The notes beneath the pieces are model-generated. The model was not told the DNA's origin, ran no database searches, and saw only the letters and a program-made list of their open reading frames with translations. Made by a program: the position numbers and the translations under genes. A stretch of DNA of 64,000 nt from Candidatus Omnitrophota bacterium. GTDB taxonomy: Bacteria; Omnitrophota; Gorgyraeia; Zapsychrales; Zapsychraceae. The stretch spans positions 157-64,156 of the forward strand of contig JAJDCA010000066.1 in the NCBI GenBank assembly GCA_029261055.1, given 5' to 3'. Positions 3,356 to 52,105 of this stretch are shown here, piece by piece. Within the stretch, counting starts at the first letter, position 1. Every line of letters begins with the position of its first letter.

Positions 3356-3817
3356 CAAATACAGATTCATCCGCAGTAAACTACTCTACAAACAGCTCAC
3401 CACAGAAACAGCCCAGGTCTAATTTCTTTCATTTGCATAAAAAGCCTGTCGCTTAGATGGATAGAAGGCATTGTAATAATTAAAAATCTAATTCTTTTTA
3501 TGTTGAATTAATTAATAAATATATCTATTACATGAGTATTAACGTATACTTGTAGTAGATCATGTAAGTAGATATCCTGTCAAAAACAGACCTCTCCATT
3601 ATTTTCCTCTTGGCCGTCTGCCAGAATTATCATCTATTTATCGGTCTCAAATTTTTACAAATGAACACAATAATTGATTGATTTGATGTGCATCGAAGGA
3701 GTATCAATACCCCTCATCTAACAGGATGTTATTGGGGGCAGGCTGCTTTGGGAGAAGGTGATTCAGTTTGGTTTGAGAGAGTACGGGGAAAAGGCAATAA
3801 ACATTAAATCGTGTTAA

Positions 3818-3900
3818 TGAAGTCTCCCCGGGGCAAGCCTCGAGGAATTAAATCCGTTGGAGATTGGCTAAATAATTTGTTCAGCCAATCTCTTAATTAA
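3818..3900 (+). promoter_or_regulatory. conserved leader element (GGGGCAAGCCTCG core, downstream hairpin, then TAATTAAAT), copy A
   Basis: gaagtctccccggggcaagcctcgaggaattaaat, then hairpin gagattggc/gccaatctc (3860-3892), then ttaattaaat, RBS and ATG at 3920. Related copies at 51644-51723 and 57374-57462. Confidence 0.4.
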
Positions 3901-3919
3901 ATAATAAAGGAGAAAACTA

Positions 3920-4003
3920 ATGGGTGACAAAGGAAAGAAAGACAAAACAAAAAGCAATAAACAAAAACAAGATAAACAAAATAAAAAAGCAAACAAAAGC
4001 TAA
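3920..4003 (+). CDS. 27-aa lysine-rich peptide (MGDKGKKDKTKSNKQKQDKQNKKANKS)
   Basis: AAAGGAG RBS 6 nt upstream of the ATG. Preceded by leader copy A and followed by a perfect 48-bp palindrome. Below the 60-aa cutoff of the ORF track. Confidence 0.35.
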   Translation: MGDKGKKDKTKSNKQKQDKQNKKANKS

Positions 4004-4068
4004 TAGACAAACCTCATTTAGTTTGCAGGTTGTTCCCTTGAAATTAGTTAGGCCCTTAAATCGTATAC

Positions 4069-4117
4069 CTATAAATTAAATATGGGTTGTCTACTAGTAG
4101 ACAACCCATATTTAATT
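4069..4117. terminator. perfect 24/24-bp inverted repeat (taaattaaatatgggttgtctact|agtagacaacccatatttaattta); candidate terminator or operator
   Basis: Exact self-complementarity read from the sequence, located downstream of the tiny K-rich ORF. Confidence 0.45.
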
Positions 4118-4168
4118 TACTGATTACCCTTAGGAAAATATATATTTTTAAGAAAGATGTGATTAATA

Positions 4169-4328: not shown

Positions 4329-5525
4329 ATGATAAAAGCGCTAGCAAAAATAAGTGTTCTCCATGTCGCGACGCTAAATAGACCAATCAGGCAAGACTTG
4401 GGTTATGGTCCTATTGAAACGGTTATTTATAATATTGATAAAGGACTGCATAAATTAGGACAGCGTTCGATTGTTGCTTGTTCCGGTGATTCGTGTGTTG
4501 ACGGTGAACACTACACCACTATTGAAAAAAGTTTTAGTGAATATCACAGTAAAGACACGCGTATGCAGCGAGACAATATGCGTAAACATCTTCTTATGTC
4601 TCTTGAAAGAGCAAAAAAAGGCGACATTGATATTATCCATATGCATGACTCTGCCATGGTTGAATATATTTTTAAAGGAATTTTTAAAAGTCCTGTTCCT
4701 ATTGTGATGACGCTTCATGTTCCTGCCGAAGATAAAGGATCATTTCAACGTTGGAATGAATCGCTGCTTGCTTCTTCTGCCGCATATTTTGTTCCCATCA
4801 GTGAATATCAGAAAAAACAACATCAGGGCTTAGTCAACGCACAGAAGGTTATTCATCACGGTGTTGATGTGGCAGACTATCCGTACAAAAGTAATATTCG
4901 GAAATACGATTATTTGTTTTCAATCGGAAGAATCACCCAGGATAAAGGGCAGGATAAAGCTATTAAGATTGCAAAAAAAACAGGTTCGCGGCTTATCCTT
5001 GCCGGGAATATTCAGAACAAAGCAAAAGACCGGGCATTCTTTAAGGAATTGGAAAAATCAATTGACCTTGTGACGGACGTAAGCAAACCTTGTGCCCCGG
5101 ACGAGTATTATGAAAAAGTCATGAAACCCATTTTAGACTCAGACAATCAGATTATCTATATCGGCGAAGTTACTAGTGAGCAAAAGAAGTTGTGGTACAG
5201 TCACGCCCGAGCGACACTCTTTACTATTCAATGGGGCGAACCTTTTGGGCTTGTTTTGATAGAATCTATGGCTTGCGGAACCCCAGTGCTCGCATTCAAT
5301 AAAGGCTCGGTTCCCGAAATTGTTGTTCATGGTAAAACAGGATTTGTTGAGGACTCAATGGATGGCATGATTGAGGCTGTTAGGTCAATTCAGCTTATAA
5401 AATCCAAGGATTGTCGTAATCACATTAAAAATAATTTTTCAATTACGAGTATGGCTGAAAAATATTCCAAGTTATATCAGCAAATTATGGATGAAAGGAC
5501 GTCATGCCTAAAGATATCCCAGTAA
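4329..5525 (+). CDS. glycosyltransferase family 4 (GT-B, group 1)
   Basis: 398 aa. C-terminal EPFGLVLIESMACGTPVLAFNKGSVPEIVVHGKTGFV is the GT4 retaining-transferase signature. Confidence 0.8.
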   Translation: MIKALAKISVLHVATLNRPIRQDLGYGPIETVIYNIDKGLHKLGQRSIVACSGDSCVDGEHYTTIEKSFSEYHSKDTRMQRDNMRKHLLMSLERAKKGDIDIIHMHDSAMVEYIFKGIFKSPVPIVMTLHVPAEDKGSFQRWNESLLASSAAYFVPISEYQKKQHQGLVNAQKVIHHGVDVADYPYKSNIRKYDYLFSIGRITQDKGQDKAIKIAKKTGSRLILAGNIQNKAKDRAFFKELEKSIDLVTDVSKPCAPDEYYEKVMKPILDSDNQIIYIGEVTSEQKKLWYSHARATLFTIQWGEPFGLVLIESMACGTPVLAFNKGSVPEIVVHGKTGFVEDSMDGMIEAVRSIQLIKSKDCRNHIKNNFSITSMAEKYSKLYQQIMDERTSCLKISQ

Positions 5526-12911: not shown

Positions 12912-13615
12912 TTCTCAAAGACATTTCATTTTCAACTCCTCACGAAAATATCGCCTATGATGATACCCTTTTGAAATTGGCTGAAGAAGGGCAAGAGGGA
13001 GAGGTTCTACGATTTTGGGAATCGCCCGAAATGTTCGTTGTCCTGGGACGTATTTCCAAAGAAGAAGAGGATGTCGATAAAGAAGCCGTTACACGCGATA
13101 ATATCCCCATTTTACGCCGCTCTTCAGGAGGAGGCACTGTTTTACAAGGCCCCGGATGCCTCAATTATACGTTAATCTTATCCAAAAAATGCCGCCCAGA
13201 AGTGGCTGATTTAAAAAAATCGTATCAATATATTCTTAATAAAATCATCGCCGCCTTAGAAACCCTGGGTGTAGAGGCCTTTTTTCACCCCATATCAGAC
13301 ATAACCGTAAACAGACCCCGGGGGTCTGTTTCAACGGTTCAAACCAAAACAGACCCCCGGGGTCTGTTTACGGTTCCATTAAAAATATCAGGAAACGCCC
13401 AAAAAAGAGGACGAAACTATATTTTGCATCATGGAACCATTCTGTATGACTTTAACCTTAAAAATATCGAAAAATATCTTAAAATACCTAAAAGCATACC
13501 CGAATATCGGGAAAAACGTCCTCATCTGGACTTTGTAACGAATATCGCACTTTCAGTCACAAGTCTTAAACAAGAGGTTCAAAAACAATTTGATCAATCT
13601 GATGAAAAAAATTGA
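12908..13615 (+). CDS. lipoate-protein ligase / octanoyltransferase family (BPL_LplA_LipB catalytic domain)
   Basis: 235 aa. RRSSGGGTVLQGPG and K-ISGNAQKR (catalytic Lys) motifs. Last gene of the gcv operon, overlapping the gcvPB stop. Contains an in-frame palindromic insertion (see repeat at 13305-13373). Confidence 0.7.
   Translation: MILKDISFSTPHENIAYDDTLLKLAEEGQEGEVLRFWESPEMFVVLGRISKEEEDVDKEAVTRDNIPILRRSSGGGTVLQGPGCLNYTLILSKKCRPEVADLKKSYQYILNKIIAALETLGVEAFFHPISDITVNRPRGSVSTVQTKTDPRGLFTVPLKISGNAQKRGRNYILHHGTILYDFNLKNIEKYLKIPKSIPEYREKRPHLDFVTNIALSVTSLKQEVQKQFDQSDEKN
13305..13373. repeat. 69-bp compound palindromic element inserted in frame inside the lipoate-ligase CDS
   Basis: ccgtaaacagaccccgggggtctgtttcaacggttcaaaccaaaacagacccccggggtctgtttacgg. 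The unit aaacagacccc|ggggtctgttt occurs twice and is self-complementary. 23 codons, no stop. Encodes NRPRGSVSTVQTKTDPRGLFTVP just before the catalytic K-ISGNAQ motif. Confidence 0.5.
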
Positions 13616-26403: not shown

Positions 26404-28494
26404 ATGAAAAACTTCATCTATACACTCTTATTTACCCTTAGCATCCTTTTATTTTGCCAAGCTGAGGCAGGTTTCACAAAAGTCACTTCATCAATGGATA
26501 CCAAAAAAACACCTATCCCGGCAGAAGAAATTATTCAAAAACTTATAAATACTTATGCGGTTATGGAAAACTATCAAAGTGAGGCCAAATATATAGGGCA
26601 GTTTGAAATCGATGGACAGATTGTAAAAACTGAAACGACTATGTTGATCAAATTAGGCAAGCCAAACTTATATCACATCAATTGGAAATCTCAGGAGAAC
26701 CAATTTGGCGAAAGCCCAGGAACAATTTGGAACGCCGGGAAAGGAGCATTTAAGTATACCGAATCAACAAATACTTATATCCAAATTTCAGAAATGCCAC
26801 AAGAATCATGTGAGATGAAAAATCAAAAAGAATGGTTGAATATAACAGAGCCATTGTTTGACATTTTCTTTAATTGCAACAATACCTCTTCAAAAATAAC
26901 ACAATTTAGATTAGTAGGAACAGATACGATCAACGGAGAAGACAACTACATCCTCCATCAAACCAATGATTCTTACAAACACACTTTATGGATTTCTAAA
27001 AAAGATTTCTTGATCAATAGGTATAAAAAAGAACCCCTGACAGAAGATTTAAGTATAGATGCCTTATCTGCAAGCCTGATAGATTCTTATGAAGATATGG
27101 GAATTGATCTTACTGAACAGGACAAATCAAAAATAAACAAATTTACGGGAATTTCTTATTTCTCATTAAATACAAGTGAATTTAAAAATATGCACATAGC
27201 ACTAAATTTTTATAATAATTTAATTGATGAAATAAAAGATAATAATGAATTCATATATTCTCTTCCTGAAAATGCTCAACTAAAATCATCTGAAAATATT
27301 ATTCCAAACAAAGAATCTATGCTACGCATACTAAAAAATCTAGATGGATTAAATTATACAATGTTATACACAAAAGGTCTTGAGCTTAGCGAAGAATCCG
27401 TAAGCGACCTCGAGAAAGAATTAGAAAACGATCCTTATAATTTTGAAATACGTTTGCAGATAATAGGGTATTACAGTGCTGATACTGACTCCGAAGAATA
27501 TCGCAGAATTAAAAATAAACACATTCTGTGGATTATTGAAAACCAACCGGATTATAAGGAAGGTAGTAGTATAATCTCTTCCCTATTTTATATTTTTCCT
27601 GACATTAATCCAAATGCCTATGATAAAGCCAAATCATTGTGGTTAAAACAAATTGAACTTCATAAAGATAATCCTGTTGTACTTACGAACGCATCTAAAT
27701 TTTTTTACCTTGTAGACAGTGAACTCTCAAAAGAAATTTTAAATATTGGAAAAAATATTGATCCAGATAATCTTTATTGGGAAGAAAGATTAAAATTCTT
27801 AAATTCATTAAATCCAAAAGATGGTATTCATAAAGAGTATTATGTCAACGGAAAATTAAAATTAGAGACAGAATATAAAGACGGCAAATACAATGGAATA
27901 TATAAAACATATTATGAAAGCGGCTCTTTAAAATTTGATGGAAATGTTAAAAATGGCGTTTATCACGGGATGGGAAAAAAGTATTATGAAAATGGACAAA
28001 TAAGTTTTATCGGGAATTTCAAAGAAGGAGCAAATGATGGTCTGTATAAATTTTTTCATGAAAGTGGTGAATTAATGCACACGTGTACGCAACAATTTAA
28101 AAAAGAAGGATTTACCCGAAAAGACTGCCAACAATATTCTTCAACAGGTGAAATAGAAAAAGAATATTATGCATTAATTTATAAACAGGATAAAGGTACT
28201 ACTCTGGAAAAAATATTTACAAACGATCATCTGTCTATTGAAAAAATCTATGATGAAAATGGGACTATTATAAAAGAAAAAGCATATACTAACGATGGGA
28301 AGCTAAAAGATGGCATTAATTATAACTACTATGATACTGGTAAAGTTCATTATGCACTAAATTACAAAAAGGGGATAAGAAAAGGTGTTAGTAAAGAGTA
28401 TTATGAAAACGGCAGCTTAAAAAAAGAAGTATCTTACACAAAGACGGCAAAAGAATTGGAATTTACAAAGAATTTTATGAAACTGGGGAAATAA
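26404..28494 (+). CDS. secreted MORN-variant (YwqK-like) repeat protein; apparent frameshift near 28436, with the repeat array continuing in another frame to 28583
   Basis: 696 aa. Signal peptide and a C-terminal array of YYENG.LK.E..YK.GK..G repeats. After the annotated stop, the +1 frame reads KDGKRIGIYKEFYETGEIKEEWSYKEGELIRKKKY...*, i.e. two further perfect MORN-variant repeats. Confidence 0.7.
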   Translation: MKNFIYTLLFTLSILLFCQAEAGFTKVTSSMDTKKTPIPAEEIIQKLINTYAVMENYQSEAKYIGQFEIDGQIVKTETTMLIKLGKPNLYHINWKSQENQFGESPGTIWNAGKGAFKYTESTNTYIQISEMPQESCEMKNQKEWLNITEPLFDIFFNCNNTSSKITQFRLVGTDTINGEDNYILHQTNDSYKHTLWISKKDFLINRYKKEPLTEDLSIDALSASLIDSYEDMGIDLTEQDKSKINKFTGISYFSLNTSEFKNMHIALNFYNNLIDEIKDNNEFIYSLPENAQLKSSENIIPNKESMLRILKNLDGLNYTMLYTKGLELSEESVSDLEKELENDPYNFEIRLQIIGYYSADTDSEEYRRIKNKHILWIIENQPDYKEGSSIISSLFYIFPDINPNAYDKAKSLWLKQIELHKDNPVVLTNASKFFYLVDSELSKEILNIGKNIDPDNLYWEERLKFLNSLNPKDGIHKEYYVNGKLKLETEYKDGKYNGIYKTYYESGSLKFDGNVKNGVYHGMGKKYYENGQISFIGNFKEGANDGLYKFFHESGELMHTCTQQFKKEGFTRKDCQQYSSTGEIEKEYYALIYKQDKGTTLEKIFTNDHLSIEKIYDENGTIIKEKAYTNDGKLKDGINYNYYDTGKVHYALNYKKGIRKGVSKEYYENGSLKKEVSYTKTAKELEFTKNFMKLGK

Positions 28495-28623
28495 AGGAAG
28501 AGTGGAGTTACAAAGAAGGAGAATTAATTCGTAAAAAGAAATATGCTACATCAGGTAATATGCTTTCTGTAGAAAATTACTAAACCAAAAAATATACTAT
28601 TACATTGCTTTAGGAGAAACCAC

Positions 28624-38659: not shown

Positions 38660-39088
38660 ATGGCCAAGAAAGTTGCAAAAGTTGGTATAAAAAAAGAGAG
38701 TGGATATCTTTATTTTGTCGACAAAGCTGGTGATATTTCTTGTGCAAAGATGGCCCGTGGCAACAAAAAAGGGGGTAAACCCAAAAAAGTTGCAAAAGTC
38801 GGTATAGAAAAAGAATCAGGATTTCTTTACTTCATCGACAAAAACGGAGATATCTCCTGCGCTAAGATGGTTCGTGGTGGAAAGAAAAAGAAAGCCACTA
38901 AGAAAAAAGCCGCTAAGAAGACAACGAAGAAAAAAGTAGTTAAAAAAGCAACAAAGAAAACAGCAACAAAAAAAACAGCTACTAAGAAAAAAGCTGTCAA
39001 AAAAGCTGTAACAAAGAAAAAAGCAACAAAGAAAACAGCTACTAAAAAAAAAGCTACTAAGAAAAAAGCAACAAAAAAAAGAAAATAA
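38660..39088 (+). CDS. lysine-rich histone H1-like basic protein with a duplicated ~35-aa N-terminal module
   Basis: 142 aa. Two copies of KKVAKVGI.KESG.LYF.DK.GDISCAKM.RG, followed by a K/A/T-rich tail (KKKATKKKAAKKTTKKK...). Strong RBS AAAGGAGG. Confidence 0.6.
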   Translation: MAKKVAKVGIKKESGYLYFVDKAGDISCAKMARGNKKGGKPKKVAKVGIEKESGFLYFIDKNGDISCAKMVRGGKKKKATKKKAAKKTTKKKVVKKATKKTATKKTATKKKAVKKAVTKKKATKKTATKKKATKKKATKKRK

Positions 39089-39128
39089 ACCATTTCAAAC
39101 GGCCCTCGTATACTTCGATCTGTTCGAC

Positions 39129-40406
39129 ATGTGCCTGGGCCGTCTTGAAATAATGAAGAGATATACTATGTTTAATCGTCCAATAAAATCAATTGTTATT
39201 TTTCTTACCCTATTCAACATTCTCTGCATGTGGAACTTAAAATCAGGCTATGCGGAGAAAAGCAAAGAAGGCATCATCAAAGAATTTTATCCTGATGGAT
39301 CCTTAGAGACTCAACGACACTATAAAGCCAATAAACTTAATGGAAAAAGTCAAACATTTTACAATAACGGCCAATTAATGAGTGAAGCAACCTACAAAGA
39401 TGATATCCTTAATGATACTTACAAAACTTTTTATGAAAATGGTAAAACATATTTTATTAAAAGATTTAACAAAGGAATTCAAGATGGTGAAGCTAAAGAA
39501 TATTATGAAAATGGCCAATTAAAAAGTGAAGAAACTTACGTCAACGACAAACTACAAGGTTTAAGTAAATATTATTTTGATGATGGTCAACTTAAATATT
39601 TTATGAATTTTAAAAAGGGCCAGTTAGAAGGAATCAGTAAAGAATACTACCAGAATGGAAAAATAAAAAGCACTGTTACCTATAAAGATGGGAAGTGGCA
39701 TGGATTAGTAAAAGAACACGAGGAAACCGGACATTTAATAGCTGAATGGGAATATCTCAATGGGAAAAGAAACGGTATTTCCAAAATCTTTTATCCTGAT
39801 GGTAAATTAAAATGGAAAGCAAATTTCAAAAATGATGAAATGAATGGCCCCAGTCTTGCCTTTGCCAAAAACGGCCAACAAATCATGGAAACAAATTTTA
39901 ACCAAAATAAATTGCATGGGCTCGTTACAGAAAACTATTCAGATGGAACATTAAAACGTGTTTCTCATTATAAAAATGACTTAAAAAATGGCCTTACAAA
40001 AGAATACTTTGAAAATGGCACATTAAGCCTCGAACGACATTATAAAGAGGCTAGAGAAGTAGGCGTTTCAAAAGAATATTATGAGGATGGAAGCCTCTGG
40101 ATTACAAGAACCTACTTAAATGAAAATAACGATGGAACATTGCGAGAATATTACGAAACAGGTGAATTAAAACAACAATGGATCATAAAAAACGGCCTCA
40201 TTCATGATATCAGTAAGTCCTACTACAAAATTGGCAAATTAATGACCGAAGAATACTATTTTGAAGGAAAGAAAAATGGTATCAGCCGTCTATACCGCCA
40301 AAATGGATCAATCGTCTATGAAGATACATACATGGATGGCGCCAGAATAAACCGAAAAATGTTTGATGAAAACGGAAAAATAATACAACCCGCCGATAAA
40401 AACTAA
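39129..40406 (+). CDS. secreted MORN-variant (YwqK-like) repeat protein
   Basis: 425 aa. Hydrophobic N-terminus, then about 14 repeats of the YYENGQLK.E..Y...K.G form. The start may instead be 39144. Confidence 0.7.
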   Translation: MCLGRLEIMKRYTMFNRPIKSIVIFLTLFNILCMWNLKSGYAEKSKEGIIKEFYPDGSLETQRHYKANKLNGKSQTFYNNGQLMSEATYKDDILNDTYKTFYENGKTYFIKRFNKGIQDGEAKEYYENGQLKSEETYVNDKLQGLSKYYFDDGQLKYFMNFKKGQLEGISKEYYQNGKIKSTVTYKDGKWHGLVKEHEETGHLIAEWEYLNGKRNGISKIFYPDGKLKWKANFKNDEMNGPSLAFAKNGQQIMETNFNQNKLHGLVTENYSDGTLKRVSHYKNDLKNGLTKEYFENGTLSLERHYKEAREVGVSKEYYEDGSLWITRTYLNENNDGTLREYYETGELKQQWIIKNGLIHDISKSYYKIGKLMTEEYYFEGKKNGISRLYRQNGSIVYEDTYMDGARINRKMFDENGKIIQPADKN

Positions 40407-43443: not shown

Positions 43444-43541
43444 AATATATATAATAACCAGTTAAGGAATTAAAAAAAGAATACCCATCTCAAGAGAAAA
43501 AATTTCTTTCATAATTCCTAAATAATAGAAAATTAAAACAA

Positions 43542-45287
43542 ATGCCAAAAACAACTAAAAAAGCCCCTGTAAAGAAAAAAACAGCAACCAAAAAAGTAGT
43601 CACTAAAAAAGCCCCCTTAAAACCAAAAAAGAAAGTCGGTTTAAAAACACGATTCAAGGTTAACCCCAAAAAAAGTATTGGAAAACTCCCTAAACTACGA
43701 AAAATTAAGGGACGCGTCAGTGCTACAGTAAAAATCAAAAAAATACGACACAAAGATGTTATGTTAATCCTTGATTTTGGTTCCCAATATACCCAACTCA
43801 TCGCTCGTCGCATTCGAGAAAATAAAGTTTATAGTAAAATTGTACCTTATACTATTAGCCCCGATGAAATCCGAGAACTAAATCCAAAAGGAATTATTCT
43901 TTCCGGAGGCCCTTTAAGTGTTTATGACAAAAATGCACCGACCCCTTCCAAAGAAATATTTAAAATGGGGATTCCAATTCTCGGCATCTGTTATGGTATG
44001 CAGATTATAACTGAAATTTTTGGTGGTAAAGTTAAATCAAGCAACGAAAGAGAGTTTGGACGCGCTGAACTATTTGTCGACAGCAATAAAGATCTTTTTA
44101 CAAATCTTCCATCTAATTTAACCAGCTGGATGAGCCACAGTGATGAAATTAAAAAAATTCCTACAGGCTTCGTCAAACTCGCGCATACACTTAATGCCCC
44201 TGTTGCTGCTTTTGCTAACCGTGCAAAGAAAATTTATGGTGTACAATTTCACCCGGAAGTTGTTCATACTCAACGTGGTGTTCAAGTCTTAACCAACTTT
44301 GTTTTTCATATTTGTGGATGTCTCCCTCGATGGACAATGGATAAATTCATCAATGCTTCCATTAAACAAATCAAAGAAAAAGTTGGCACCAAAAAAGTTA
44401 TTCTTGGTTTAAGTGGTGGGGTTGACTCTGCTGTAGCTGCTGCCATGATTCATAAGGCTATTGGAAAAAGACTATATTGTGTTTTTATCGACAATGGACT
44501 GTTACGAAAAAATGAACTGACCTCCGTCCAAAAAACATTTAAAACAAATTTAAACATGAATTTAACATGTGTCAGTGCCGAAAAAGGATTTTTAACCCGG
44601 CTAGAAAATATCACCGACCCTGAAGAAAAAAGAAAAATTATCGGGGATGAATTCATAAAAGTTTTCCAAAATAAATCTAAAAGAATTAAGAATGCTTCTT
44701 TTCTGGCCCAAGGCACACTTTATCCAGATGTTATAGAATCCCATTCTCCGACAGGAGGGCCATCGGCTGTCATTAAAAGCCATCACAATGTTGGAGGACT
44801 CCCTAAAAACCTTAAGTTTGAACTTATCGAACCTTTGCGCGAACTTTTCAAAGATGAAGTCCGTGCGATTGGAAAGCGCCTTGACCTCCCGGAAAACATC
44901 CTTAAGCGACAGCCATTTCCTGGACCTGGACTTGCTATTCGTATCATTGGTGCGGTAACCCCAGAACGCCTGGAAATACTTAGAGAAGCCGATGAACGCG
45001 TACTTGATGAAATCAAAAAAGCCGGCCTGTATAATGAGATTTGGCAGTCTTTTGCGGTATTACTTCCTATAAAAACTGTTGGCGTTATGGGAGACCAAAG
45101 AACCTATGAAAATGTTATCGCCATCAGATGTGTAAACAGTCAGGATGGCATGACGGCAGACTGGGTACAATTGCCACACGAAATTCTTGGAAAAATATCT
45201 AACCGCATTATTAATGAAGTCAACGGTGTTAACCGTGTCGTTTACGATATAAGCTCTAAGCCTCCCGCAACGATTGAATGGGAGTAA
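43542..45287 (+). CDS. guaA: GMP synthase (glutamine-hydrolysing), with ~70 in-frame K-rich codons ahead of the conserved GATase start (possible N-terminal extension)
   Basis: GATase region [19 protein letters not shown]...GICYGMQ, ATP-PPase region GLSGGVDS and a conserved C-terminal dimerisation domain. The first ~70 codons are [18 protein letters not shown]... Confidence 0.9.
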
Positions 45288-50856: not shown

Positions 50857-51552
50857 ATGATCTCCAATTCCAAAACAGCACCATTTATTCTTGAAACAAT
50901 TGACCAACGCTTACAGTTACGTAAATCTGATGAACCGAAACTCGGGTCTGTCTGCGTCGATTTTGTCAAAGGCTCAAATGCTCATCGTCGTAAATTTGGT
51001 GGAGGGAGGAGGCAGGCTATTGCCAGGGCTGTCGGCCTTAAAAAAGGAGCAACACCCTCGATCTTAGATGCCACGGCCGGACTAGGGCGCGATGCGTTTG
51101 TACTGGCCTCACTCGGTTGTCGTGTTCATATGCTGGAGCGTTCACCCATCATAACGGATCTGCTTGCCGATGGATTACAGCGCGCAAAAAATGATGCTCA
51201 AATCGGTACCTGGATTTCAAAACGCCTTACACTAGACATCAAAGACAGCACCAAAGGATTATCATCTTTACCTTTTAAACCCGATGTTGTTTATTTAGAT
51301 CCGATGTACCCGGAAAAGAAAAAATCTGCTCTTGTAAAAAAAGAAATGCGCATGCTTCAATTGCTTCTCGGCAATGATCTTGATTCTGACAACCTACTAG
51401 AGATAGCTTTAAATATCGCACAACAACGTGTTGTTGTTAAACGTTCGGCACATGCCAGTCATCTCGCCGATAAAACCCCCAATGCCACAATTAAAACACA
51501 AAAAAATCGTTTTGATATTTATCTAATACCAAACCAAAATAGAAAAGATTGA
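50857..51552 (+). CDS. rsmJ: 16S rRNA (guanine1516-N2)-methyltransferase
   Basis: 231 aa. Close match to E. coli RsmJ/YhiQ over its length ([10 protein letters not shown]...DFV.G...[60 protein letters not shown]). Confidence 0.9.
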
Positions 51553-51643
51553 CGAATGAATAAACAAAGAGTATAGTGCAAACAATTAGGAATTGAAAAA
51601 AATAATTTACACATATTTAATAAAAAACCTCGTCGATTCAACT

Positions 51644-51723
51644 GAATCTCCTCGGGGCAAGCCTCGGGAAATTAGACCCTTTTGGAATTTCTTTAAAACT
51701 AGAAATTCCTAATTAAATTAAAC
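51644..51723 (+). promoter_or_regulatory. conserved leader element, copy B, within a ~320-nt 5' leader
   Basis: gaatctcctcggggcaagcctcgggaaattag, then hairpin ggaatttct/agaaattcc (51684-51709), then taattaaattaaac. Confidence 0.4.
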
Positions 51724-51874
51724 GATGATTTTATTTCTTTCCAATTGCTTGAGTAAAAGTTTTTACTTTAACCATCCTGAAATTTTAATTAACCATTTTC
51801 GTGTTCAACCTACTTTTAAACATTATCAAAATTCCTACACGCTTAGCTTTATTTAAAAGGGAGGGGAAAAATCA

Positions 51875-52105
51875 ATGATGGATATAGGGAAAATTTCAAA
51901 AATACGGCAAGACAAACACTGTGGCATGATAACATTATCTGATGGTCGAGAGGCTACGTTTAATAATCGTTGCCTTTATAAGAATGCTGATTTTAATACG
52001 TTATACGAAGGCCAAGAGGTTGAATTTTATATTCAAAGAAGCCATAAAGGTTATCTAGCTGCTTCAATTAGACCGCTCCAACCAGCAAGTACTGTAAAAG
52101 TTTAA
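51875..52105 (+). CDS. degenerate cold-shock-domain-like small protein
   Basis: 76 aa. Spacing resembles CspA (G.I..I...KG.G.IT..DG...F ... L.EGQ.V.F.I), but the aromatic residues of RNP1 are replaced (KHCGMI). Confidence 0.4.
   Translation: MMDIGKISKIRQDKHCGMITLSDGREATFNNRCLYKNADFNTLYEGQEVEFYIQRSHKGYLAASIRPLQPASTVKV

Follow-up and report, generated by a model that had tools for sequence, protein, structure and literature searches.

The stretch of DNA analysed here (the window: 64 kb of contig JAJDCA010000066.1, from a Candidatus Omnitrophota bacterium) raises a question at an AT-rich spacer of 322 nt, which separates the end of rsmJ at 51552 from the ATG at 51875 of a 76-amino-acid (aa) open reading frame (ORF). 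Is this spacer the long leader of a cold-shock gene, or did its conspicuous structure arrive by another route? An earlier reading made from the sequence alone (the sequence-only reading) had put the distance at about 320 nt, in agreement with our measurement, and had proposed a long structured leader in which a recurring module, GGGGCAAGCCTCG with a hairpin, serves as the thermosensor of a divergent cold-shock system. Here we report that the module corresponds to the joined ends of an IS200-type insertion sequence (IS). [quoted passage not shown]

Transposon ends in a repeated module

In the 64-kb window GGGGCAAGCCTCG occurs exactly twice, at 3830 and 51654, and a 25-nt degenerate version of it finds the same two sites, with 0 matches in 100 shuffles. 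The recurring module that had been noticed earlier, with its copy B in the spacer, was recovered in full: copy B spans 51642-51717 and copy A 3817-3901. The two have about 43 nt in common at 79% identity, followed by a hairpin of differing sequence and then by TAATTAAAT. A covariance model (R1), built from 18 short modules only and from no IS sequence, finds these two copies and no others in the window. For both, the transposon top strand (the sense of the transposase gene tnpA) is the minus strand of the window. The parts are as follows.

3817-3901, minus strand: copy A, a putative terminal-only element running from ATGAA to TTAAA (R1 58.2 bits, E = 3.9e-13; fold); element proper 3817-3896, target 3897-3901
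3826-3845 and 3859-3892, minus strand: chimeric hairpin and second hairpin (P2) of copy A, from folding
51642-51717, minus strand: copy B, a putative tnpA-less, terminal-only element of IS200/IS605 type with its target motif (R1 57.1 bits, E = 7.6e-13); element proper 51642-51712
51642-51646, minus strand: right-end terminal motif (TEM) of copy B, CTGAA on the plus strand and TTCAG on the transposon top strand, corresponding to TTCAT/TTCAC at the right tip of the full IS
51650-51669, minus strand: chimeric subterminal palindrome (P1) of copy B, CCTCGGGG-CAAG-CCTCGGGA, from folding and from alignment to both IS ends
51666-51679, minus strand: mini-hairpin of copy B, GGG-AAATTAGA-CCC, with the guide-like AATT at 51670-51673
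51684-51709, minus strand: variable hairpin P2 of copy B, GGAATTTCT / AGAAATTCC, from folding; copy A has another hairpin at the same place
51713-51717, minus strand: target or transposon-adjacent motif (TAM) of copy B, TTAAA on the plus strand and TTTAA on the transposon top strand

At one metagenome locus (L095), a CAAG hairpin and a canonical module stand on either side of an opposite-strand gene for a 155-aa TnpA (PF01797), which sits exactly in between. Close homologues of the TnpA (P0072, P0053 and P0088, 81-93% identical) were fetched at 15 loci, P0072 being present on 60 contigs. All 15 loci share one left end (LE) and one right end (RE), and their flanks diverge exactly at TTTAA on one side and at TTCAT/TTCAC on the other, which defines a full IS of about 570-600 bp with a single tnpA for a Y1/HUH transposase. 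Read in the sense of tnpA, LE consists of variable flank and TTTAA, followed across the boundary by (A/C)C-TAA-GGGGG-TGCAATT-CCCC-GAGG-CTTG-CCTC, while RE reads CCCCGCAG-CTTG-CTGCGGGG-AGC/AGT-TTCAT or TTCAC and then gives way to variable flank. The signature expected of a parent element is a tnpA flanked by TTTAA...GAGGCTTGCCTC and CTGCGGGG-nnn-TTCA(T/C/G). At three of the tnpA loci (L118, L122 and L125, on metagenome contigs) the small IS200-type element is found upstream of an IS3-type (rve) transposase gene, at a distance of about 70 nt, which suggests that it inserted into another IS or beside one.

The reverse complement of RE is ATGAA-GCT-CCCCGCAG-CAAG-... and that of LE is ...GAGG-CAAG-CCTC-GGGG-AATTGCA-CCCCC-TTA-GTTTAAA; the window module is the first followed by the second, joined within the two similar hairpins. 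Copy B is identical to the reverse complement of RE at 24/34 positions and to that of LE at 30-31/35-37, and copy A at 25-27/33 and 28-30/36-38, respectively. P1 of copy B has a 5' half similar to the RE hairpin, its 3' half being the LE hairpin, and the arrangement of the mini-hairpin of this copy matches GGGG-AATTGCA-CCCCC in LE of the full IS. R1 matches both ends of 15/15 tnpA-carrying IS copies, always antisense to tnpA. TTTAA (top strand) adjoins both window copies and all IS copies, with TTCAT, TTCAC or TTCAG at the other tip. The base beside the hairpin also changes together with the target: across all copies G-A-ATT goes with ATTAAA 26 times and G-T-ATT with AATAAA 12 times, although many copies are related and the independent events are fewer than 26 + 12. 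Of 5 seeming exceptions none is clean; each is either a miss of the pattern matching or a distant match. On the transposon top strand the rule reads AATT with TTAA and AATA with TTAT.

The window copies, 76 and 85 bp in length, have no inverted termini (ATGAA or CTGAA on one side, TTAAA on the other), and no target duplication is seen in their flanks (cgtgtta and taataaag; gattcaa and ttaaacg). Precise excision of 51642-51712 would leave a predicted minus-strand joint of CATCGTTTAA with TTGAATCGACG.

Because R1 matches both IS ends, the two halves of the module align to the reverse complements of RE and LE, and the guide covaries with the target, we interpret the module as a terminal-only PATE, that is, as a putative miniature, non-autonomous, tnpA-less derivative of an IS200/IS605-family element. 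Terminal-only PATEs of IS605-type transposons, including 52-bp versions generated by repeat-mediated deletion between near-terminal palindromes, were described in Haloquadratum by Dyall-Smith and colleagues (PMC3119063), and the window copies may have formed by the same route, the core being deleted between similar palindromes. By analogy with IS608, the element would move as single-stranded DNA, and a TnpA supplied in trans would recognise its subterminal hairpins. The 4-nt DNA guide beside the hairpin would pair with the target motif (AATT with TTAA, or AATA with TTAT), and insertion would occur 3' of that motif, without target duplication. DNA-guide/target pairing and its covariation, TAM and TEM, and PATE-like elements have been described for IS608 and the ISGst elements (PMC10055086). 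In the spacer upstream of the 76-aa ORF, insertion would have brought about 75 bp and two stable hairpins into an otherwise ~245-nt AT-rich sequence, and would be the reason for the length and apparent structure of the leader. Once transcribed, the hairpins may by chance stabilise transcripts from rsmJ or terminate a part of them. In Salmonella IS200 the hairpin of the left end terminates transcription in both directions (PMC4513863), so read-through from rsmJ could conceivably be affected; scoring gave no terminator-like site here.

The window copies share with the terminal-only PATEs of Haloquadratum walsbyi (HqIRS46 and ISHwa23 derivatives; PMC3119063) a length too short for a transposase and the lack of terminal inverted repeats and of target duplication. 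The likeness extends to near-terminal palindromes identical to those of tnpA-carrying elements, with the core deleted between similar palindromes, and to a boundary marked by a conserved short terminal oligonucleotide. They differ in being bacterial rather than archaeal, in having a parent of IS200 type (tnpA only, ~600 bp) where the Haloquadratum parents are tnpB-carrying elements of IS1341/IS605 type, and in the extra variable hairpin P2 between guide hairpin and target motif; their mobility is putative. With IS200 of Salmonella and IS608 of Helicobacter pylori the family has in common a Y1/HUH TnpA (PF01797), imperfect subterminal hairpins on one strand, one at either end, a short AT-rich target 3' of which the element inserts, and an RE tip (TTCAT/TTCAC) close to the TCAA of IS608. 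The four guide-like nucleotides next to the hairpin vary together with the target, in line with what is described for IS608 and the ISGst elements (PMC10055086). The hairpin sequence, however, is another one (G-CTTG-C loop), the target is TTTAA/TTTAT and not TTAC, and the full element measures ~570-600 bp where IS200 has 707 bp; the window holds tnpA-less derivatives only.

A scan of one genome per species for the 19-nt core gave 87 loci, of which about 30 share the flanks of the window copies; these come from AT-rich or moderate-GC genomes of Bacteroidota, Treponema, Verrucomicrobiota, Omnitrophota and Bdellovibrionota. These flanks consist of RTGAA or GTAAA 3-4 bases 5' of the hairpin and, 3' of it, G-W-ATT-N-AACC, a short variable hairpin and A-W-TAAA. 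A metagenome scan added 24 further loci, and a scan of viral contigs gave no match. On the related loci R1 finds additional copies that are diverged and partly deleted, tandem clusters, and several copies per genome or contig, and at four loci (L096, L101, L103 and L111) there is a long form with two separate CAAG-loop hairpins. Element boundaries are sharp, and deletion derivatives are present. Relative to the upstream gene the element lies in the same orientation in about 18 cases and in the opposite one in 23; for the downstream gene the counts are 21 and 23, and by inspection the neighbours have no function in common. An orientation that is about half and half, sharp boundaries and unrelated neighbours are together not the behaviour of a cis-regulatory leader. 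The full IS is found at no fewer than 10 different flanks and short forms occur in many genomes, and the window copies themselves are putatively mobile.

Some of the related loci have features of their own. In Verrucomicrobiota a version of about 190 nt is conserved across several Opitutales-type genomes (L061 3228-3420, L084, L043, L077 and L004); it has two CAAG-loop hairpins around a conserved GC-rich central domain and no Rfam match, and may represent either a cargo-bearing PATE or a separate RNA. On a TARA scaffold (L101, ~4860-5120, minus strand) about 28 nt separate the end of a reverse-transcriptase-like ORF of 441 aa from a long-form copy that comes after it, and a short-form copy follows about 1 kb further on. 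In a Treponema metagenome-assembled genome (L033 6180-6900, minus strand) a non-coding stretch of 700 nt holds three copies, whose hairpin stems show compensatory changes (CCTCGGGG/CCCCGAGG and CCGAGG/CCTCGG).

The spread of so short a structure across phyla could also be taken to mean that a conserved structured RNA in its own right (riboswitch, small RNA or self-cleaving ribozyme, absent from Rfam) underlies the module, and that the IS only carries or mimics it. Near-identity of the 20-nt hairpin and its flanks across phyla, optional inserted stems, tandem arrangements, a G-U pair in the canonical stem on the strand read here and terminator-like hairpins after some copies would all suit an RNA. 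It would be a new one: Rfam searches, by gathering threshold and by E-value, of the window, both module regions and 26 related loci returned only tRNAs and noise, and a literature search with the module sequence string found unrelated primers only. We nevertheless consider an independent RNA very improbable, since both halves of the module map exactly to the termini of tnpA-carrying IS copies and conservation stops at the IS boundaries. The absence of an orientation bias or of a common gene family nearby, the existence of decayed and deleted copies and the lack of matches in viral contigs argue in the same direction, and the single clear covariation fits the IS608-type DNA guide/target rule, not an RNA helix. 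Improbable as well is that the module is a repetitive extragenic palindromic (REP)-like sequence served by a domesticated, single-copy REP-associated tyrosine transposase (RAYT). There is a real resemblance here, in that REP sequences are short intergenic imperfect palindromes with a conserved adjacent motif, found in either orientation and related to IS200-type Y1 transposases, and some of the TnpA homologues are labelled 'REP element-mobilizing transposase RayT' by the Joint Genome Institute. What separates the two is that the same TnpA occurs at many sites (P0072 on its 60 contigs, with at least 8 different flanks among those fetched), that LE and RE are defined, in direct orientation and enclose a ~600-bp unit as in an active IS, and that there are few copies (2 in 64 kb, 1-3 at each locus), where a genome usually holds REPs by the hundred. 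Nor were inverted pairs like those of bacterial interspersed mosaic elements seen.

Other identities of the module were tried and set aside. Its reading frame varies among copies, many of which have no start codon, as would not be expected of a conserved peptide, and no ORF ends at either window copy for which URAA could be the stop codon. The module was also set beside the cores of hammerhead, twister and pistol, the k-turn, the T-loop, the hairpins of RAT/ANTAR, boxA/boxB, and sigma-54 and sigma-70 promoter patterns; judged by eye none of these fitted, and Rfam supports none of them. An A/G-U/C covariation after the hairpin suggested an RNA helix RGG/CCY, but the mini-hairpin of the IS left end and the guide/target rule account better for the inserted stems and the W/W covariation. 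A likeness to helix 45 of 16S rRNA, the RsmJ substrate, is superficial, and elsewhere the element is unlinked to rsmJ.

The spacer as a leader

The remaining features of the locus are listed here in their order along the plus strand.

50857-51552, plus strand: rsmJ, of the 16S rRNA m2G1516 methyltransferase family (PF04445 SAM_MT, 319 bits), upstream neighbour of the CSD-like gene
51549-51577, plus strand: weak sigma-70-like promoter candidate, TTGACG-17-TATAGT (10/12 match), overlapping the rsmJ stop
51859-51866, plus strand: Shine-Dalgarno (SD) sequence GGGAGGGG of the CSD-like gene, strong by sequence, with a predicted mean unpaired probability of 0.42-0.43 at 10-42 C
51875-52105, plus strand: 76-aa divergent CSD protein of a 'CL[WY]' subfamily, from PF00313, AlphaFold2 (AF2), Foldseek and homologues

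The description of this region as a long structured leader held for the module and failed for the leader. Taken alone, the module folds better than shuffles (z = -2.99 for copy B, -3.34 for copy A), but no such excess is seen for the 317-nt leader 51584-51900 (z = -0.68; 20 of 100 shuffles fold at least as well). What is structured here is the module and not the leader as a whole. The promoter candidate, if used, would put the element inside the 5' untranslated region (UTR), a weak indication given a match not above chance: 6 sites of the sigma-70-like pattern were found and 4.2 are expected from shuffles. The metallophosphoesterase gene that begins 27 nt past the stop of the 76-aa ORF, and the SpoU-type methyltransferase gene after it, are probably co-transcribed with the ORF, whose true start may be the second ATG, at 51878.

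The idea that the ~320-nt region is a cspA-like RNA thermometer, with the GGGGCAAGCCTCG/hairpin module as its thermosensor, had some points in its favour: a long upstream region in front of a gene for a CSD-fold product, two stable hairpins, and a CUCCUC in the module complementary to the GAGGGGA of the SD. It is now largely refuted, and we regard it as extremely improbable. The supposed thermosensor is the fused ends of an IS200/IS605-type element, copies of which, in either orientation, lie beside unrelated genes. Conservation of the leader with the gene is not seen, the element being absent upstream of the closest CSD-like homologues; their upstream spacers measure 60 nt (P0004) and 35 nt (P0009), with 437 nt upstream in L090, and R1 matches none of them. 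Rfam searches of 51540-51900 matched no family at E <= 10, not even the cspA thermoregulator, noise apart, and a search for the cold box with up to 3 mismatches gave 113 matches in the window, none of them in 51553-51874.

Folding at different temperatures points the same way. Accessibility was computed with the ViennaRNA partition function at 10, 20, 30, 37 and 42 C, with and without 51642-51718. The predicted unpaired probability stays at 0.42-0.43 for the SD and 0.54-0.58 for the AUG from 10 to 42 C and is unchanged on deleting the element, and the predicted pairing partner of the SD, 51805-51811, lies outside it. Nothing links the element to temperature sensing.

The 76-aa protein

Where the sequence-only reading saw in the 76-aa ORF the spacing of the oligonucleotide/oligosaccharide-binding (OB) fold of CspA with the aromatic residues of ribonucleoprotein motif 1 (RNP1) lost, both observations stood. 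The ORF, the sole CSD in the window, matches the Pfam CSD model PF00313 at 33.8 bits (cut-off 27; E = 3.1e-8) over profile positions 3-64 of 66, and its alignment to CspC, CspE and CspA is gapless, with identities of about 30-34%. KWF has become SKI (Trp11-Phe12 to Lys-Ile), RNP1 has gone from KGFGFI to KHCGMI and RNP2 from VFVHF to ATFNN, so that the protein does not present the RNP1/RNP2 aromatic surface and Trp11 of CspA-type RNA chaperones. All NCBIfam Csp models score at or below 36 bits where their cut-offs are 115 or more, the best being CspE at 36.2 bits (cut-off 120).

Structure prediction gave a CSD fold. AF2 predicts five strands from the single sequence, with a predicted local distance difference test (pLDDT) score of 67 and cold-shock proteins as the best PDB matches in Foldseek, and again five strands from a 19-sequence alignment, at pLDDT 89.1. 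The latter model superimposes on Escherichia coli CspA (1mjc) with template-modelling (TM) scores of 0.79/0.86 and a root-mean-square deviation of 1.5 A over 68 columns, and the top PDB matches of the protein are CspA, CspC and CspE, with TM up to 0.80/0.88.

With its canonical RNA-binding residues gone, and with only itself returned by a word-indexed search of 5.8 billion proteins, the ORF might be taken for a decaying pseudogene or a chance ORF. We judge this highly improbable: the ORF is intact and has a strong SD, its score is above the Pfam threshold, the aligned AF2 model is confident (pLDDT 89), and an exhaustive HMMER search of 1.84 billion representatives found 49 relatives. About 10 of these are single-domain proteins of 66-76 aa, 43-56% identical to the window protein, which have likewise lost Trp11 and the RNP1 phenylalanines and carry a new conserved Cys-Leu-Trp/Tyr motif after strand 3. 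This CL[WY] subfamily is seen mostly in metagenomes, and the window protein has additionally lost most of RNP2. These proteins form a small subfamily under selection and not a decaying gene, and the product of the 76-aa ORF is a genuine small protein, with a predicted CSD beta-barrel. Also among the best HMMER matches are metagenomic proteins with 3-7 tandem cold-shock domains (P0005-P0010), up to 1,699 aa in length.

Compared with CspA/CspE-type proteins (PF00313), then, the window protein keeps the length, the gapless alignment and the predicted five-stranded beta-barrel; it differs in the replacement of Trp11/Phe12, of Phe18/Phe20 in RNP1 and of His33/Phe34 in RNP2, in its C-L-W/Y motif, in being basic (net charge about +3) instead of acidic, and in the lack of cspA-type 5' UTR features at its gene. 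Contact with nucleic acid or with a partner protein has probably been kept, though not through CspA-style stacking on single strands. The eukaryotic Unr/CSDE1 contains non-canonical cold-shock domains that keep the fold without the RNP1/RNP2 aromatics and act as structural or protein-contact modules; the parallel is an analogy only, those domains being eukaryotic and part of multi-domain proteins. A role in defence, as the CSD effector of a type V (Se72) retron, was considered and rejected: NCBIfam retron_eff_Se72 scores 21 bits (threshold 82) and PADLOC CSD_V 20 bits, far under threshold, and no reverse transcriptase lies nearby, the neighbours being rsmJ, the metallophosphoesterase and the SpoU methylase.

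The locus as a whole and the rest of the window

Several points weigh against the view that the locus holds a mobile-element derivative beside an unrelated gene. No tnpA lies within the 64-kb window, an autonomous partner in the organism is hypothetical, and the full-length IS copies that were fetched do not have the extra P2 hairpin of the window copies, so that the exact parent was not among them. The right-end guide was lost in the terminal-only form, and the copies may be immobile relics instead of mobile PATEs. Both window copies are oriented as the small genes directly downstream of them, which is compatible with secondary co-option but does not demonstrate it. The temperature and accessibility results are all in silico, and what we suggest of the protein's function comes from its predicted fold and residue changes only.

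The orientation of the copies leads to a further possibility. Both lie in sense directly upstream of genes for small basic proteins, namely the CSD-like gene and a 27-aa Lys-rich ORF, MGDKGKKDKTKSNKQKQDKQNKKANKS (3920-4003), and the remnant might have been co-opted as a cis-acting RNA, as an insulator or partial terminator or as a transcript stabiliser; separately, the CL[WY] proteins might be a new functional class of bacterial non-canonical cold-shock domains in which stacking on single strands was swapped for another ligand. In our estimation this reading is unlikely. Copy A ends 18 nt 5' of the strong SD (AAGGAG) of the 27-aa ORF, which has no NCBIfam family match.

Other repeated and palindromic sequences were recorded in the window. 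Downstream of the Lys-rich ORF, 4064-4127 forms a near-perfect long hairpin (...aaatatgggttgtctactagtagacaacccatattt...), probably a terminator, which gives spurious plant-microRNA matches in an E-value search of Rfam. At 13303-13375 lies a perfect 29-nt inverted repeat, AACCGTAAACAGACCCCGGGGGTCTGTTT, 100% complementary around a 15-nt spacer. Coding repeats with a 15-nt period, rich in Lys, Ala and Thr (AAGAAAGCxACTAAG...), occur at 38873-39094 and 43530-43622 and are like histone-H1/Hc1-like basic tails, and coding units of about 72 nt of the YYENGxLK (MORN-like) type are repeated in two separate genes, at 27816-28501 and 39479-40033. Direct repeats of 162 nt (81% identity; 3-164 and 288-449) and of 97 nt (78% identity; 38664-38760 and 38781-38877) were also found.

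The module is an ordinary mobile-element remnant of a known type and the CSD subfamily a mild curiosity, and the value of the analysis lies first in the removal of a false lead: a repeated, hairpin-rich 'leader module' that crosses phyla and has no Rfam entry resembles a new riboswitch or thermometer, and here it is the joined ends of an IS200-type element. With the element family recognised, motif screens need not mistake it for regulatory RNA. The gain from the CSD-like protein is modest: it represents a bacterial subfamily in which the cold-shock fold is kept while the canonical nucleic-acid-binding aromatics are replaced. The ~600-bp elements and their 60-90-bp tnpA-less derivatives are spread over Bacteroidota, Spirochaetota, Verrucomicrobiota, Omnitrophota and Bdellovibrionota, the organism of the window included, and their copies provide a natural series for following guide/target covariation and repeat-mediated loss of the core.

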